Assembly (NCBI GenBank): GCA_965208125.1
Contig: OZ242320.1
Location: forward strand, 1,664,001-1,728,000
Direction: 5' to 3'
Origin: Candidatus Latescibacterota bacterium
GTDB taxonomy: Bacteria; Latescibacterota; UBA2968
Length of the DNA: 64,000 nucleotides
Within the stretch, counting starts at the first letter, position 1, and each line of letters starts with the position of its first letter. A program made the translations under genes and the position numbers. A model generated the notes under the pieces. The model was not told the DNA's origin. It saw nothing but the letters and a program-made list of their open reading frames with translations, and ran no database searches. This document shows, in pieces, positions 5,807 through 63,180 of this stretch.

Positions 5807-5838
5807 GATCCCGCCTCTCTCCACTTGTCGAGTCAACG

Positions 5839-6432
5839 TCAAAATGAATACGAAACGGGAACCTGTTTCACGCGGCGCAGATCGCGCATATCCGATGGCC
5901 GCTGCTTCAACTGCAATGCGGAATCCACACGCGCCGAGTCCCGATAATGACGAGAATCCAGACTATAAGACTCCTTGGACAAACGCTCCAATTCCAGAGC
6001 ACCTACATCAACATTTGGCAATCTCTCGCCTGGCATCAGTGGAATTTCCCGCTCCACTGCCACTTGCGGGATAGGTGTTGTATCGCTATAGAAAACCATC
6101 TGGGTCAACCCCAGACCGATCACCACAGCCGCAGCCAGCGTTGTAATAGTCCGCGAGATAGAAGAGAACATTGTGCGCCGCGCTTTGTGTAAAAGCTGTT
6201 TTTCTTTTGCCATAGCCATAGCCAAATGGCTACGCAGGGTAAAATCAAACTCAGCCGATGGTCGAACCCGTGGCAATTGCGCCATACGCTCTTTCAAGGC
6301 TTGCACATCGGCTAACAAAACGCGACAATGCTCGCACTCGGCAGCTTTGCGCTCCATTTCTGCCATTTCAACCGGACTCATTTCACCATCTACATAAGCC
6401 GAAACTCGCGCTTCAAAATCAGTAACGGTCAT
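5839..6432 (-). CDS. Membrane anti-sigma factor (zf-HC2/ZAS-like)
   Basis: VSAYVDGEM...ECEHC, one TM helix, directly downstream of the ECF sigma gene. Confidence 0.8.
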   Translation of the reverse strand: MTVTDFEARVSAYVDGEMSPVEMAEMERKAAECEHCRVLLADVQALKERMAQLPRVRPSAEFDFTLRSHLAMAMAKEKQLLHKARRTMFSSISRTITTLAAAVVIGLGLTQMVFYSDTTPIPQVAVEREIPLMPGERLPNVDVGALELERLSKESYSLDSRHYRDSARVDSALQLKQRPSDMRDLRRVKQVPVSYSF

Positions 6433-6470
6433 GTCTATATTTAACCTCCGAGCAGGGTTTCCACGATATC

Positions 6471-7082
6471 TTAGACATTCAGGCCCACATCCCGACCTTC
6501 ATTTTTCAATTTTTGTTGTAATTTTAAGCGCCCGCGATTGACGCGCGATTTCACCGTCCCAACCGGACACTTCACAATTTCAGAAATTTCATAATACGAC
6601 ATACCTTCCACATCGCGCAACAAAATCACCTGACGGTAATTATCGGGCAGGGAAGCAATAGCACTCTGAATCTCCACATCGGCCAGAGAAGATTCCGCCA
6701 TGCGATCGGGACGCATAGATTCATCGGGCAAATCCATGCCCGTATCTGACTCCTCATCTCGATCCAGTGAAAACAACCGCCATCGCTTGCGCCTTCTCAG
6801 TTCACTTTTAGCCAAATTTCCGGCAATCGTAAACAGCCATGTAGAAAAATTGGCAATTGCACGATATTCCTCGCGCTTTCCAAACGCACGCAAAAACGCC
6901 TCTTGTACGATATCTTCTGCTGTTTCCCGATCGCCCACAAAGCGAAAAACAAAATTGTACAACCGCCCTTGATAGCGCCGCACAATTTTTCCATAAGCAT
7001 CAATATCTCCAGCGGATACCTCAGCTAAAATATCTATATCTGATTGTTCGCTCAGTCCATATCTCGAATTTGCCATAAGCAT
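6471..7082 (-). CDS. ECF RNA polymerase sigma factor (RpoE/SigW-like)
   Basis: [34 protein letters not shown] and [13 protein letters not shown] motifs; start chosen by SD GGGAGG. Confidence 0.92.
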
Positions 7083-57990: not shown

Positions 57991-59583
57991 TTACGCAATC
58001 AGCACTGGATGTAACAACTCAGGAGACTGACGATCCGGGACAAAAAACTCTTTCCAAGAGTATTTTAACGACAAGTGAAACACCTTTTCGTTTATCAGTG
58101 TCATCTTTTCCGTGCCGAACCACATCTCGGCCAATTCCCATACGCGAAATGGCCCCTTCTCTCCCGCTTCTATCAGATAGTCATACAACTCGGAAATCCG
58201 TTGGCGACAAAATTCTCTTCCGTCGGCGATGCCTGCTCGCTTGGTATAGGTATATTCGCCGCCATTCTTGGGGAGTTGCACATCTACATTCAGAGCCCTT
58301 TCTCTCACAGATTCAGCCAATTTCTTCCTCGCACAGTCATCGCCGTGTACAAGAAAGCATGTATGCGGCTTCAGTCTCTCGACCAAATTCGCCAGTTGTT
58401 TCTGATCCGCATGCGCGGAAAGCGAATATCGCTTCACATCGCACTCTACATGTTCCTCCTGTTCATCAAGGTTCAGGACGCGATCATCCTGCAACTTGCG
58501 CCCAGGAGTTCCTTCAGCCTGATAGCCCGTAATTGCGATCAGGTTCTTTGGATCACCAGCTAATTTCTCGGCATAAAAACTCGATCTGCCTCCGATCAAC
58601 ATCCCCGAAGACGCCACAATACAGCACGGCTCCCACGACGCAACGCTATCGCGGTCAAATTTGCGCGGCACTGGCTTTATGGTATCCGAATAGAAAATAT
58701 CCTCGTCTCGTTCTACCCTGCCCCGCATCGCTGGTGCAAGATTATCCCCAAAAGTCGCATACACCTTATTGACCGACTGCACCATCCCATCAATCCATAT
58801 GGGAAACTCGGGAATCTGCTTGCGCCGCATAGCCCGCGCCAAAATCAGAACAACCTCCTGTGCACGCCCCACGGCAAAGGCCGGTATTAACACTTTTCCG
58901 CCAGATTCAATCACCTTAGCCACGTCCGATACAAGCCGATCTTTTTCATTTGCGCGATCCTTGTGACAACGATTACCATACGTGGATTCCATCACCATCA
59001 CATCGGGACGGCACTGCGGCACAACCATACCCGGAATCGTCAGTTGATTGGCAACCGACACATCGCCTGTCATCAGAATACTTTCCCGTTTGCCCTCAAT
59101 ATAGATCATTGCTGCGCCCAAAATATGCCCGGCACGAATCCACCTGGCGGTCAACGCGCCATCACAGACCGACACGGGTTTATCCCACGGCACATCCACC
59201 ATGCGTTCCAAGACTGCGGCGACATCTTCAGGAGAACACAGAGGCAACTTACCGTCTTGTTGCTCACGCTGTCCCCGGTTCGCAGTATCTTCTAACAATA
59301 CCCGTGTAATCGCCTTTGTTGCTGGCGTACAATACATCTTCACATCTGCGGGCAAACCATTCACCAACACCGGCAGAGCACCCGTATGATCGGTATGCGC
59401 GTGTGTAATCAGCACCTCATCGGGCATACCCACATCGTCCGGCACAGAAAAATTGGGCAACTGTTTATCCTGATGGACGCCCATTCGAATGCCCGCATCT
59501 ACCAGAATGCGTTTTTCTTCTATTTCAATCAATGTGCAGGAAGCACCGACCTCGTCGGCACCACCCAAAAAATGGAGTTTCAT
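57991..59583 (-). CDS. MBL-fold beta-CASP ribonuclease (CPSF73/YSH1-like)
   Basis: LVDAG, THAHTDH, AGHILG, TGD, MESTYG, AVGRAQE, GYQAEGT, LSAHAD and LVHG (motif C His, RNA-type); ~90-aa C-terminal extension. Confidence 0.92.
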   Translation of the reverse strand: MKLHFLGGADEVGASCTLIEIEEKRILVDAGIRMGVHQDKQLPNFSVPDDVGMPDEVLITHAHTDHTGALPVLVNGLPADVKMYCTPATKAITRVLLEDTANRGQREQQDGKLPLCSPEDVAAVLERMVDVPWDKPVSVCDGALTARWIRAGHILGAAMIYIEGKRESILMTGDVSVANQLTIPGMVVPQCRPDVMVMESTYGNRCHKDRANEKDRLVSDVAKVIESGGKVLIPAFAVGRAQEVVLILARAMRRKQIPEFPIWIDGMVQSVNKVYATFGDNLAPAMRGRVERDEDIFYSDTIKPVPRKFDRDSVASWEPCCIVASSGMLIGGRSSFYAEKLAGDPKNLIAITGYQAEGTPGRKLQDDRVLNLDEQEEHVECDVKRYSLSAHADQKQLANLVERLKPHTCFLVHGDDCARKKLAESVRERALNVDVQLPKNGGEYTYTKRAGIADGREFCRQRISELYDYLIEAGEKGPFRVWELAEMWFGTEKMTLINEKVFHLSLKYSWKEFFVPDRQSPELLHPVLIA

Positions 59584-59631
59584 CTTGATTCCTTTCACGA
59601 ATGACGTTTGCTATCCCAGTTGTCTTGAAAG

Positions 59632-59974: not shown

Positions 59975-61753
59975 CTATTCTCCCCAATCGAGGCGATCAT
60001 TTTTCTCTCGTGTTCGGTGCAATTCTGTTCGGCGCGTTCGTATCGCCCCTGCTTGATCAATCTCTTTTCCCAGCGTCAAGAGATGTGACTGGCGAAGCCA
60101 CCAAAAGGCTTCAAATAATGGTCGGCGAGATGAGGCACCGCGCTCTAAATTCGGCTTGTTGCGGTTGAGATGCCGGATTTGTCTGTGCGCTCTTTTTGCA
60201 AATTCGCGGACATTTTTATCGGGATCGTTTTTAGACAGCCAAAACAATGTTCTATGCGCTCGCCCACCGGGATTCACGCGCAAAGCTGTCAATGCCTGCA
60301 CATAACACTGCCGCCACGTCCGGCGCGGTTCAACAAATTCTTCATCTGCGTCATCAGACACGTTACTCTTTGTCCGGGTGTCAGTTTTTTTTGTCTTAAG
60401 CCGTTCAAGACAAAATTTGGCAAACTCTTCGCGCAAGCCCTGTAAGTGCGGATCTCTATCCAGTTCATCCCGAAGATTCTGAGGATACATAGAGATTCCG
60501 ATCCAGGAAGGGATTCGACTATACGGATGAGGGGGAGGCTCTCTATCTGATTCTGGCCAGTAGCGAAGATCCGAGGCAACGGCTGGCACAGTCATCTCTG
60601 TGAAAGCAAGCAATAAGGACTTCAAACATCGCCACGGGGCGGCAAAGATGCACAACACTTCAAAAGCCTTATCGTAAAAATCATCAACGTCCTCACCTGT
60701 CGAATCCTCACGCGCAAAGTCCTCGGGCGTCTCTCGCAACACTTTCCGCAACATGCCCATGTGTTTCGCAGCACTTGCGACCAGCCGATCTCTCAGCTCA
60801 TCAGACAGACCAGACGCCAAACCACCCATACCGCTATAGTAAATCGTCACAGATAACCGCCACCAGGCTTTGAGCAAAGATGCGCGTTCTCGGCTTAACT
60901 CGGGCTGTTTCTCATCCAGAAGTTCCATGAAGGGAATTAACTCATCTGCAACAATTCGCCATCCGTCACCCACGGGATTCAAACGTTCCGTACCCAATGC
61001 AAAGCCAGTATTCATAGCATATCCAATGGCATGCAAAAGGCCGAGAATTTTGTCGCCCAAAACGTCTCCAGAAAAATCAGAAAACGCTTGTAGCAGGGTG
61101 TCCAACCTGATGATGTCACAACGCTCTGCGTTATCCCGGAATCGCCAGATTAACCAAAATTCAATCTGTTCAGGATCTCCAAAATCATTTTTGGACCATT
61201 CTTTTCGCTGAATCGGATTCAACAACTCGAAATTGGCGACCTGGCCTAAAGGCACGCCTTCTGGAAAGAGAAATGGAATCAGGTCAAAGAATCGGTACTC
61301 GTCCCAAATTTCAATGAGCTTGTGCAAATCCAAACTTTTCACACAAAAATCCGCATGCCTTTGGAACGCACCAACCCACTCGGGAATGACCTCATTTGGT
61401 ATATCGAGCTTTTCGTTGGGCCCACTCTTTTCACCGTGATAAATAGGTCCAAAGCCAAGCAGAAAGCTAAAAAGCAGTGCCAGACGGAGTTGCCGATCCT
61501 TCTCGGTTTGATCTGGTTCTCCTAACTTTTCCACAATGTCAGGTAGGTCACGCTCAAAATAACTCGCAAACTCGTCTTTGAATACAGCATCCCCACTGGT
61601 ATCACCAAAACAGTCTGGACGTTCAAAAACGCGAATGAGCCATTCCTGGTCATCACGGGAAAAACCAGCGTCCTGAAGGCACTGTTTTACAGAAGATACT
61701 TCTGAATCATCAGGGAAAACAAGGCCAGAACGGCCATCTTCAGCTTCGCTCAT
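59975..61753 (-). CDS. Hypothetical alpha-helical protein with a HEAT-like C-terminus
   Basis: 592 aa with SD AGGAG; C-terminal WRQCYVQALTAL...NDPDKNVREFAKRA...FEAFWWLRQSH. Confidence 0.75.
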   Translation of the reverse strand: MSEAEDGRSGLVFPDDSEVSSVKQCLQDAGFSRDDQEWLIRVFERPDCFGDTSGDAVFKDEFASYFERDLPDIVEKLGEPDQTEKDRQLRLALLFSFLLGFGPIYHGEKSGPNEKLDIPNEVIPEWVGAFQRHADFCVKSLDLHKLIEIWDEYRFFDLIPFLFPEGVPLGQVANFELLNPIQRKEWSKNDFGDPEQIEFWLIWRFRDNAERCDIIRLDTLLQAFSDFSGDVLGDKILGLLHAIGYAMNTGFALGTERLNPVGDGWRIVADELIPFMELLDEKQPELSRERASLLKAWWRLSVTIYYSGMGGLASGLSDELRDRLVASAAKHMGMLRKVLRETPEDFAREDSTGEDVDDFYDKAFEVLCIFAAPWRCLKSLLLAFTEMTVPAVASDLRYWPESDREPPPHPYSRIPSWIGISMYPQNLRDELDRDPHLQGLREEFAKFCLERLKTKKTDTRTKSNVSDDADEEFVEPRRTWRQCYVQALTALRVNPGGRAHRTLFWLSKNDPDKNVREFAKRAHRQIRHLNRNKPNLERGASSRRPLFEAFWWLRQSHLLTLGKEIDQAGAIRTRRTELHRTREKNDRLDWGE

Positions 61754-61938: not shown

Positions 61939-62203
61939 CCCCAAATTTGGAAAACTCGGTCTAATCCTATTGTGTTCTTATCCACATTCTTATGATGTAA
62001 AAATCTCCGTTAAACCCCACCTTTTGTGAGTGATTAGATTACAACCCGCCCTCCATGTCCTTTCCGATTACAAAACCCCGCGTTATTCGTTTCAGAGGGC
62101 GCACTCTTATTGATGGTGTGCCCGCCCGCAGGTCTTCAAACGATATGCGACACCCCACAGCGCAAGTCCAAGACAAGCGCCGCTTCGGGGGAGCATCAGT
62201 TTT

Positions 62204-62935
62204 TTGCCGTCTGGGGCGTTGCTTTCGGTTGCTCGGTTCGGCCGTTGGGTGGGGCGTTCTCGTCCTCTTTGGTCCGGTGGGGCGTTGGGCGTTGATAGTG
62301 CTGCGTCTGCTGGGGCGTTGGCGCAGGGTGGTCAGGTGTGCTGGTGGTTGCCGGCTGGGTTTGGCGAGTTGGCCGCTGGGTCTTCGTCGCCTGTTGTTCG
62401 TGGTCCGGGTGGGGTCTTTCCGGTTTCGGCGCCCCGTCAGTTGGCGCGTTCTGTTCGGTGTGTTGCCTGGTCGGGTGGGCCGTCTTCCGCTTCTGTGCCT
62501 TTCAGCGAGCGGTTGTTCCAGCGGTCTGTGTCGCTTCTTCTCTCGCTTCGTGGTGCGGGTGGTGGGTCTGTGGTCTGCTTCACCTCTCAGGTTGCTCTTT
62601 CGGCTCGGCGTGGGGGGTCCTATTTCACTGTCCGTCGTGCGTTGCGCCTTGGGTTCCGGCCCGGTGTGTCGCTGTTTGTCGTGCTTGTTGGGGAGCCTGC
62701 TGGCTTTCAGCTTTTGTCGCCGGGGGCTGTGGTGTCCGCCTTTTCTGCTCCCTCTTCCTCTCAGCAGTCTCTCTTCACTCCCGAGCAGCTTGTGGGTGCG
62801 CGTCCGTCTCTCTTCCCGCCGGTGTCTCCTTCTGGGTCTCGTCGCGATCCGCATGGCGAGCGGTTTGATTCTCAGTCCGTGTGTGGGCCGTTGTCTCAGT
62901 CCTTCTGGCTCGGTTTCCGGTTCCGGTCTGGTTAG
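62204..62935 (+). CDS. SLOG/DprA-like Rossmann-fold protein encoded by an adenine-depleted gene (possibly 5'-truncated)
   Basis: WSGGALGVDSAASAGAL and GGSYFTVRRALRLG match the DprA/SLOG motifs SGxAxGxDxxAHxxAL and GSxxTAxxAxxxG. All A residues fall at codon positions 1 or 2 in this frame. Confidence 0.65.
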   Translation: MPSGALLSVARFGRWVGRSRPLWSGGALGVDSAASAGALAQGGQVCWWLPAGFGELAAGSSSPVVRGPGGVFPVSAPRQLARSVRCVAWSGGPSSASVPFSERLFQRSVSLLLSLRGAGGGSVVCFTSQVALSARRGGSYFTVRRALRLGFRPGVSLFVVLVGEPAGFQLLSPGAVVSAFSAPSSSQQSLFTPEQLVGARPSLFPPVSPSGSRRDPHGERFDSQSVCGPLSQSFWLGFRFRSG

Positions 62936-62979
62936 GGTTTCTGGCCCTTCGTCCGCGGTCCATTAGATAGAAGTTTGAT

Positions 62980-63180
62980 TTGACCACTTTAAATTTGGCG
63001 AAATCTGAATGCCTCAACGCACAAAAAGGGATGCCTCGCGCCTCTGGTCTATGGGCCGTGTGAAAATCCTCGCGTTCAATCAACATTATCTGAACCGAAT
63101 TATTCGCATCTTCGGATTGGACGAGACTTGCATCAAAAAACGACACGAATATCAAATGCTTAAGGATTATGGCGCGCCGT
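62980..63180 (+). pseudogene. Frameshifted C-terminal remnant of a DDE-type transposase
   Basis: LTTLNLAKSE in one frame, then SMGRVKILAFNQHYLNRIIRIFGLDETCIK...YQMLKDYG in another; resembles from memory the C-terminus of an IS4-like transposase group. Confidence 0.45.

Follow-up and report, generated by a model that had tools for sequence, protein, structure and literature searches.

The 64,000-nucleotide (nt) stretch analysed here, positions 1,664,001 to 1,728,000 of contig OZ242320.1 (assembly GCA_965208125.1) from a Candidatus Latescibacterota bacterium, is referred to below as the window, and positions are counted from its first letter. At 62201-62960 it contains a tract that is almost free of adenine (A): the plus strand has 27 A (3.6%), 208 C, 271 G and 254 T in 760 nt, against 26.9% A in the whole window (binomial tail for 27 A in 760 nt at p = 0.269: 3e-66). 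The tract belongs to a gene family that is a selected, protein-coding member of the DprA/SLOG superfamily, and this family carries a conserved constraint of A avoidance that is so far unexplained. Alignment with intact relatives indicates that the tract itself is what is left of a small mobile expression unit, a copy truncated at the 5' end and no longer alive.

The adenine-poor tract and its family

Within the open reading frame (ORF) at 62204-62935, on the plus strand, the As fall at codon positions 1, 2 and 3 as 5, 22 and 0, and the chance of finding none of 27 As at position 3 is (2/3)^27 = 1.8e-5. The translation lacks Lys, Asn, Ile and internal Met, the stop is TAG, and no codon ends in A, so that Gln must be CAG and Glu must be GAG. 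The edges of the tract are sharp, with no A between 62198 and 62295 and, after the A of the stop codon at 62934, no further A until 62962. The computed composition at each codon position bears out a sequence-only reading of the window, which had described an almost A-free 760-nt tract with sharp edges against normal flanks, no A in third positions and the same restrictions on amino acids, codons and stop. Stop codons call for A in the sense strand or T in the antisense strand, which leaves all six reading frames of such a tract almost uninterrupted, and for the same reason an open frame alone is no evidence for a gene there and gene callers over-extend or misplace genes in A-free tracts. The evidence for a gene in the tract is the three-base periodicity of its surviving As.

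The tract stands alone in the window and almost alone in the genome. A scan of the window for all four bases in 300-nt segments, with a cut-off of 8%, gave a single match, A at 62139-62990. Across the 5.75-Mb genome, 200-nt segments below 7% define two long A-poor tracts, of 804 and 950 nt, which correspond to the window copy and a second copy (copy 2; G000:1825517-1826279) about 100 kb apart, and the ten further low-base tracts of the genome are all 267 nt or shorter. Among the genome's open frames that reach 250 codons or more, 4,201 in number, the four A-poorest (3.4-7.1% A) all lie inside these two copies, against 12.6% A for the next-lowest frame and a median of 24.5%. Nothing is unusual about the dprA-type frame of the genome itself: A makes up 25.7% of its bases and 24.5% of its third positions, and 40% of its residues require A. 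Repeats within the window comprise the tandem repeats of a giant gene and two weak inverted pairs, none of which touches the tract. A contig from a DNA sequencing run bridges 61999-62440 with four differences, although the run may derive from the source sample and is thus not independent. An assembly artefact, which the sequence-only reading had raised against itself, is excluded by the presence of relatives in JGI, ENA, NCBI and Logan assemblies.

Among 5.8 billion proteins searched, 29 relatives were found, and a profile search of 1.8 billion representatives returned 22 proteins at E < 1e-10, the remainder being weak matches to the DprA core. DNA was recovered for 15 homologous loci. All 15 are A-depleted, with 0.2-14.6% A against 17.3-28.4% in their flanks, the highest value coming from a 96-nt fragment. 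The reference is an intact gene of 271 codons in genome G011 (L008/L012), with 28 A in 813 nt distributed over codon positions as 4/22/2. A homologue of about 91% identity (L013) has 27 A in 819 nt, members of a GC-rich clade (about 57-62% identity) have 50-65 A in 846-867 nt, and the most extreme member (L026, about 50% identity) has a single A in 564 nt. Thus, A depletion persists to a divergence of about 50% identity, a positive outcome of the test that the sequence-only reading had proposed. In L026, which starts with GTG and stops with TAG, the single A belongs to the Asp codon of the GADSAA motif. Its product (L026:2884-3450; P0034, P0160-P0164) is a DprA-like protein of 188 residues made of A, C, F, G, L, P, R, S, V and W plus one Asp, and six variants of it are on record from several data sets, all with the same ten amino acids and the one Asp. 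Stops are TAG in eight of nine genes, the ninth being frameshifted, and starts are GTG in five and ATG in three.

The protein encoded by these genes is under purifying selection. The ratio of nonsynonymous to synonymous divergence (dN/dS) is 0.13-0.29 in all 21 pairs, with differences concentrated at position 3, which confirms that the frame is coding sequence and not junk. Between clades, synonymous divergence is saturated (dS 1.4-4.2), yet the number of position-3 As stays at 0-16 per gene. The avoidance also reaches beyond the codons: the untranslated leader has 36 A in 477 nt (7.5%), against 312 in 1,612 nt (19.4%) in the interior of a hairpin that lies upstream, and the first 30 nt past the stop are intermediate (37 of 270). 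Because the untranslated leader is also depleted, the constraint bears on the nucleic acid and not on codons alone, and we infer, in agreement with the sequence-only reading, that A avoidance is maintained by selection on the nucleic acid.

This constraint is still active. In the close clade, 5 of 62 polarised private changes create A, and G>A accounts for 3 changes, C>T for 11 and G>T for 12; the variable position-3 sites are C/T in 28 cases, G/T in 21, C/G in 5 and A/G in 2. Among contigs of four sequencing runs, 4 of 82 differences create A, all of them in the hairpin part and none in the A-poor tract. The As that remain lie mostly in codons without an A-free synonym or near-equivalent, in addition to the ribosome site, start and stop. 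The reference gene has 28 codons with an A; 13 of these are CAG, and GAG, GAT and CAT are among the others. Codons of this type account for the position-2 excess of As. Lys, Asn, Ile, Met and Thr together form 0-8% of the family proteins, against 7-30% in ordinary DprA matches. Where a diverged homologue has A, L008 has T in 20 cases, G in 18, C in 8 and A in 12, and the typical amino acid swaps relative to this homologue are Thr to Ser, Lys to Arg, and Ile to Val or Leu. Editing of A to inosine, read as A to G, was considered and rejected, since A aligns with T as often as with G.

Membership of the DprA/SLOG superfamily, first proposed from the sequence of the window, is supported at the level of the family. 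Alignment of the family (A2) with 16 canonical DprA proteins by hhalign gives a probability of 98.1% (E 1.2e-13, 146 columns). Single sequences fall below the Pfam gathering score of 29.6 for PF02481 (window ORF, E 0.0048, 16.5 bits; copy 2, 3e-6, 27.0 bits), and the same Pfam family is precomputed on 16 of the 29 family proteins. Positions G27, S28, R29, G55, G56, D61, G167 and G168 of A2 are invariant or nearly so, and the aligned motifs VAVVGSR, SGGALGxDxAA, an RNR-like QRS and GGSxF(S/T)VRxA lie in the Rossmann-like core. The alignment covers residues 21-194 alone, and the N-terminal SAM-like and C-terminal winged-helix domains of DprA are absent from these small, very basic proteins of 188-289 residues. 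Weaker matches were obtained to DprA chains in the PDB (E 0.023) and to PHROG 768 ('DprA-like'). The PADLOC model for PsyrA matches at E 4e-7 to 3e-10 (4.3e-7 for the L012 protein and 6.2e-10 for the 188-residue form) and that for ShosA more weakly, down to 1e-4; these matches cover about 60 residues of the shared DprA core alone.

Proteins of the DprA family bind single-stranded DNA (ssDNA) and load RecA. The consulted parts of the literature on the DprA-like protein ShosA describe that it, too, binds ssDNA and RecA (PMC12961424, PMC11961720) and that it counters a phosphoribosyltransferase toxin disturbing purine metabolism (PMC11961720). We read the unit as a mobile module whose product would be a small protein resembling DprA that binds ssDNA and recruits RecA.

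Two further observations concern the coding sequences. The codons of an invariant Trp-Trp pair, together with a preceding Cys or Arg codon, spell GCTGGTGG in five of nine genes (L012, L013, L020, L021 and L023) and in the window at about 62338-62347. We take this to be the Chi sequence of Escherichia coli; by our own estimate the chance of finding it is about 0.13 per gene, and it is likely a by-product of the codons. In addition, a sister family of small DprA-like proteins (P0060, P0047, P0062, P0064, P0066, P0082, P0104, P0141 and P0145; alignment A6), characterized by FGPR...VWSGGARGCDSAF, is related to the A-poor family (hhalign 99%, E 3e-18). Its A poverty is read from protein composition: A-requiring residues fall to 0.6% in this family and are at a normal 30-39% in its relatives P0053, P0067 and P0068. 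At the DNA level, a search of the phylum for this sister family found solely ordinary DprA-like genes with 13-22% A.

The upstream hairpin and the damaged copies

Comparison of the loci defines an intact unit of about 1.3 kb, which consists of a hairpin, an A-poor leader containing GGAGG, a gene of 188-289 codons, the TAG stop and a short tail. The hairpin, of 200-280 nt and several helices, lies upstream of every intact gene, and its outer helix is formed by CGCCCGCAGG and CCTGCGGGCG. Over nine loci the structure comprises 66 pairs, with 92.4% of cells paired against 86.5% in shuffled alignments (a value reached by 0 of 500), and 95% of cells are paired in helix 1. Compensatory changes occur at 17 pairs, against 8.2 expected (0 of 500), and slid controls are 43-51% paired. 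Rfam contains no family for the window stretch or for the intact leaders. Of the phylum's 168 genomes, three contain the hairpin motif, always preceding a gene of the A-poor family, and it was not found before other genes. The A-poor zone starts at the foot of the hairpin, and the distance from foot to start codon is 55-61 nt in seven of eight loci.

Several features of the hairpin bear on the strand in which it acts. Helices 1-5 are almost purely Watson-Crick, so that either strand can fold, and the minus strand folded as ssDNA gives z = -7.85 and -4.68. The small helices 10-12, which lie in the downstream leader, are G.U-rich and RNA-like. In the GC-rich clade the conserved unit starts at the outer helix itself, and therefore any promoter owned by the unit must sit inside the hairpin. 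The sole conserved AT-rich element there is an unpaired loop, AAAAGATAY or AAATTTAC: of the eight loci in which the outer helix was found, six have AAGATA and two AATTTA, so that the minus strand reads TATCTT or TAAATT in all eight. A -35-like TTGCGY lies 14-15 nt upstream of this -10-like hexamer on the minus strand, and in the folded minus strand the two elements point into the gene. For comparison, known single-strand promoters are described, in the consulted part of PMC13478746, as long hairpins with -35 and -10 boxes, one of which, on a plasmid, delays complementary-strand synthesis.

Two other elements were noted in or beside intact units. A strong terminator-like hairpin (L012:6913-6944, minus strand) lies between the unit and a convergent gene for a CoiA_N-like protein, and the flank of copy 2 has it as well. 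Some 110 nt of normal composition, bounded by inverted ends (TTAGGGCTCACGC...GCGAGCCCTTAG), form an insert that lies just past the start codon in L018 (about 1640-1750) and likewise in L017, and looks like a miniature transposable element.

The window copy retains only part of this unit. Homology with L012, L013 and copy 2 begins with a 5' flank of normal composition, conserved in the low-GC clade only (62047-62122, plus strand, as for all features given here), which is 92% identical to the 120-nt segment preceding copy 2. It is followed by the 5' strand of the outer helix, CGCCCGCAGG (62123-62132), whose 3' partner is deleted here. Next come the conserved A-rich internal loop, here CAAACGATAT (62137-62146), which is unpaired in the folds and gives a -10-like TATCGT on the minus strand, and the left arm of the hairpin (62145-62199), which is recognized by alignment to intact leaders and contains the 5' strands of helices 2-5 of the structure that the 17 compensatory pairs support. 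The arm ends in a T run, which at a deletion junction (62199-62205) is joined to codon ~30; the junction is seen in alignments to copy 2 and L012/L013 and is spanned by the DNA-run contig. The A-depleted DprA/SLOG-like coding remnant (62204-62935; 243 codons plus TAG) corresponds to about residues 32-273 of intact homologues. A 3' tail with one A in 28 nt, at 62962, occupies 62936-62963; homology with the other copies ends at 62963/62964, and the unit in those copies extends about 70 nt further, to a small hairpin. In addition, one 60-nt contig of sequencing run X1 skips 62028-62411; this skip, positions lacking read cover and the small shares found in RNA runs do not enter the evidence.

Relative to copy 2 and L012/L013, the window copy therefore no longer has the 5' leader with its GGAGG, the start codon or about 31 codons, and only the 5' half of its hairpin remains. 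The missing codons include the PVAVVGSR motif, nearly invariant among intact relatives, and with it the GSR loop. Intact homologues start about 31 codons upstream, at ATG or GTG behind GGAGG. Because the T run of the hairpin has been fused onto the coding sequence, the TTG at 62204, which the sequence-only reading had taken as the start codon, is merely the first start codon after a stop, and the gene in the window is probably non-functional.

Copy 2 is 94% identical to the window copy over 766 nt, and their proteins are 85% identical. It retains AGGAGG, the ATG and the N-terminus, has lost most of the hairpin, and is frameshifted by a one-base insertion after ...RRALGLGFRPG, so that both copies in the source genome are damaged. 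A third genome, G017, has a gene copy with an internal deletion. In this genome (L015:415-805 and 5820-6543) a lone left part of the hairpin and leader lies about 5.5 kb upstream of the deleted gene, and the genes between the two have ordinary base composition; the split suggests a rearrangement or an insertion into the unit.

Distribution and genomic setting

The loci are labelled Latescibacterota (three), Poribacteria (one, 91% identical) and Zixibacteria (a fragment). The phylum of the window has strong matches in 4 of its 168 genomes, and that of the Poribacteria-labelled genome in 1 of 176. Near-identical words were found in sequencing runs from 14 studies, and a number of these runs carry the label sponge metagenome. 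The spread is thus patchy and mobile-looking, with the unit turning up sporadically in Latescibacterota-type genomes and in a few others that are likewise uncultured.

No conserved partner gene was found, and the flanks differ between loci. The G011 unit is part of an island whose other genes encode a fusion of a tyrosine integrase with an ATPase, a helix-turn-helix (HTH) plus DnaA_N protein, a CoiA_N-like protein and AbiEii, and the chromosomal genes that bound this island also flank the copy in G017. The CoiA_N-like neighbour was considered as a conserved partner and rejected, since the gene in L012 is unrelated to the neighbour of copy 2. The neighbours of copy 2 are genes for an HTH/M78-peptidase protein, an HTH-dynamin-like protein, a protein kinase and a PD-(D/E)XK nuclease. 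Those of the window copy are, besides unannotated genes, a gene for a beta-CASP metallo-beta-lactamase RNA-processing nuclease (57991-59598, minus strand) followed, directly upstream of the remnant, by a gene for a protein of 592 residues with no Pfam family (59975-61753, minus strand). PIN-domain and AbiEii toxin genes are found near three loci. A stand-alone response-regulator receiver gene lies 1-2 kb upstream, in varying orientation, in L012, L019 and L021, which are otherwise different. Further away in the window, an open frame of 8,820 codons (22432-48894, plus strand) contains 26 tandem copies of a repeat of 681-684 nt that are 82-100% identical, and probably encodes a giant repetitive surface protein.

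Possible causes and comparison with known systems

What is observed, and what an explanation starts from, is the composition, its conservation, the purifying selection, the fold family, the covarying hairpin and the restriction of both hairpin and A avoidance to the unit. The explanation that we favour, tentatively and at somewhat less than even odds, is that the hairpin is a single-strand promoter driving transcription of a T-free template into an A-free message. The element would be present as the minus single strand after uptake or transfer, whereupon the hairpin would fold. The unpaired TATCTT or TAAATT would then act as a -10 element, and RNA polymerase would read outward from the hairpin along the T-free template. 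The A-free message would give a DprA-like protein that might coat the incoming strand and recruit RecA. Avoidance of A in the sense strand, and of T in the template, begins where the hairpin ends and continues until shortly after the stop codon. Such a template and message would go unrecognized by T-directed attack on ssDNA, by A-directed RNases and by any primase or nuclease whose site contains T. The sequence-only reading had listed a T-free strand that evades thymidine-directed toxins during transfer among its hypotheses, and the hairpin lends this single-strand idea some support.

Several results weigh against this explanation. The spacing of 14-15 nt between TTGCGY and the -10-like hexamer is short for a sigma-70 promoter, and a simple promoter scan did not report the pair. 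To our knowledge, a benefit of a T-free template has been demonstrated nowhere. Relaxase, secretion and competence-pilus proteins account for 0 of the 40 flanking proteins scanned at nine loci, and the plasmid, phage and IMG/VR collections gave no relatives of this family or of its sister family, so that single-strand entry is assumed and not shown. Likewise, the setting in the leading region of a plasmid or integrative conjugative element that the sequence-only reading had envisaged was not found, although one locus, that of G011, does lie in an island with a tyrosine integrase. As do not survive only at conserved residues, a proposal rejected because the conservation of A-containing codons is 0.59 against an average of 0.72, and selection for message structure was rejected as well (z = +1.16 for the A-free message against its own shuffles). 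The GC-rich clade is gaining A, with 36 changes to A against 10 from A among 157, and the constraint is therefore not uniform. None of 16 private changes in the two broken copies of the source genome is to A, which fits a mutational cause as well as very recent breakage. Finally, an RNA-library contig (X17 record 7) spans both hairpin and gene; if it is truly RNA, the hairpin is transcribed and could be a structure of the 5' untranslated region (UTR) instead.

This last point leads to the next explanation, which we consider possible but distinctly less probable than the single-strand promoter. Here, the unit is transcribed from double-stranded DNA, the hairpin is a regulatory or protective structure in the 5' UTR, and the A-avoiding body survives A-dependent endoribonucleases or mRNA-modifying toxins. 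Candidates include mRNA interferases with A-containing sites, HEPN RNases that prefer A, and GA-directed ADP-ribosylation; most such nucleases need A in their site. The A-poor zone is transcript-like, running from leader to just past the stop, the many G.U pairs of helices 10-12 are possible solely in RNA or the plus strand, and toxin genes of the PIN-domain and AbiEii types lie near three loci, as noted above. RNA-library contigs from three studies, including the one that spans hairpin and gene, fall on the tract, although they are no proof of transcription. However, the hairpin, with 19% A and an unpaired A-rich loop, would be a liability in the same RNA, and the GC-rich clade has no conserved sequence ahead of the hairpin to hold a promoter.

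A mutational origin is unlikely. It would require an A-specific mutator acting in cis on the sense strand, while selection keeps those As that the protein needs; candidates are error-prone copying via RNA like that of diversity-generating retroelements, an adenine deaminase or glycosylase on an exposed strand, and the encoded SLOG protein itself. Such a process would account for the A-to-any pattern between L008 and the diverged homologue and for the sharp boundaries of the tract. The lack of any private change toward A in both broken copies would agree with it too. Moreover, the rate of change at A sites (4 of 28) is about double that at other sites (58 of 785), and G>T matches C>T in frequency, as expected of a G>A>T path. 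On the other hand, G>A is per site about five times rarer than C>T (3 of 292 against 11 of 223), a deficit not predicted by a process of pure A loss, and A is rising in the GC-rich clade while the protein is under purifying selection. A retroelement in particular was rejected: RVT_1 reverse transcriptase was found in none of four host genomes (a control search was positive in 3 of 14 known genomes), and the two copies in the source genome, which differ at 48 of 766 columns (4 of them gaps), do so almost entirely at non-A sites and not at A positions as a template and variable pair would.

A bolder possibility, to which we give a lower probability still, is immunity by composition, in which the SLOG/DprA-like protein would attack adenine in single strands and its own A-free gene and message would be exempt. 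The protein could be a binder or, given that other SLOG enzymes cleave adenine-type nucleotides, an N-glycosidase. If true, a rule for self and non-self would be written in base composition and not in a site, a modification or an antitoxin, and the drift of related lineages of small DprA-like proteins toward this composition would be explained as well.

It is very improbable that the cause lies in translation, either in avoiding the codons of tRNAs cut by nucleases (Lys, Asn, Thr, Tyr, His, Asp, Glu, Gln and those with U34 wobble) or in avoiding Lys in the protein: the scarcity of Lys, Asn, Ile, Met and Thr and the lack of codons ending in A in the window ORF fit it, but a pure tRNA or codon cause leaves the A-poor untranslated parts unaccounted for, and the gene retains codons for Gln, Glu, Asp and His, whose tRNAs belong to the known targets. 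Least credible of all is nucleotide supply, by which the message would remain transcribable when a defence system depletes ATP (or dTTP, for the complement of the template), for although elongation through the tract needs almost no ATP and ShosA counters a purine-disturbing toxin, the tract is 36% G, so that purines are not spared in general, translation and tRNA charging need ATP anyway, and a phosphoribosyltransferase domain occurs in none of the 40 flanking proteins.

Whatever its cause, the purge has persisted through saturated divergence in company with a covarying hairpin dedicated to the unit, and it costs the protein half the amino acid alphabet, down to ten amino acids and a single Asp in one member. 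A full-text literature search found no natural gene purged of one nucleotide and no bacterial A-free gene, and we know of no natural gene purged of one of the four nucleotides. The force behind it must be strong, base-specific and hitherto undescribed, and candidates are a base-specific threat to ssDNA or RNA, a need imposed by transcription from a single strand, or a mutator specific for adenine. The 188-residue member, as a natural and selected Rossmann-type protein with a reduced alphabet, is of interest for protein design and for early genetic codes.

Among known systems, the A-poor family shares with DprA/Smf (PF02481) the Rossmann-like core and its motifs. It differs from it in being much shorter, with no match outside the core, and in being built largely of ten amino acids that have A-free codons, whereas the genome's own dprA is ordinary. 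ShosA and PsyrA, the antitoxins of the type IV systems ShosTA and PsyrTA, are likewise small stand-alone DprA-like proteins in defence or mobile contexts. The likeness to them is confined to the DprA core, the A-poor units are without an adjacent phosphoribosyltransferase toxin gene, and the consulted parts of PMC11961720 and PMC12961424 report no compositional oddity for these antitoxins. The Frpo and ssp promoters of conjugative plasmids likewise have a long, GC-rich, imperfect hairpin directly upstream that points into an early-type gene (PMC13478746, as far as consulted), and the A-poor unit has -35/-10-like hexamers on its would-be non-template strand with a spacing of 14-15 nt. The likeness considered here is one of structure; neither oriT nor relaxase nor transfer genes were found near the A-poor unit, and a T-free template is not described for these promoters in the part of PMC13478746 consulted.

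Diversity-generating retroelements are likewise A-specific, with changes from A to any base, and the surviving As of the A-poor unit are at codon positions 1 and 2. Unlike these retroelements, the unit has neither a reverse transcriptase nor a pair of template and variable repeats, its A-poor tract comprises an entire gene (0.6-0.9 kb), and the As of that tract stay the same from copy to copy instead of varying. The remaining comparison is with mRNAs that lack ACA and thereby resist MazF, in which a transcript likewise avoids a sequence while its protein stays intact. We know of no cognate nuclease for an A-free message. Whereas the ACA-less mRNAs avoid a triplet, the A-poor gene avoids a whole nucleotide, at the cost of half the amino acid alphabet.

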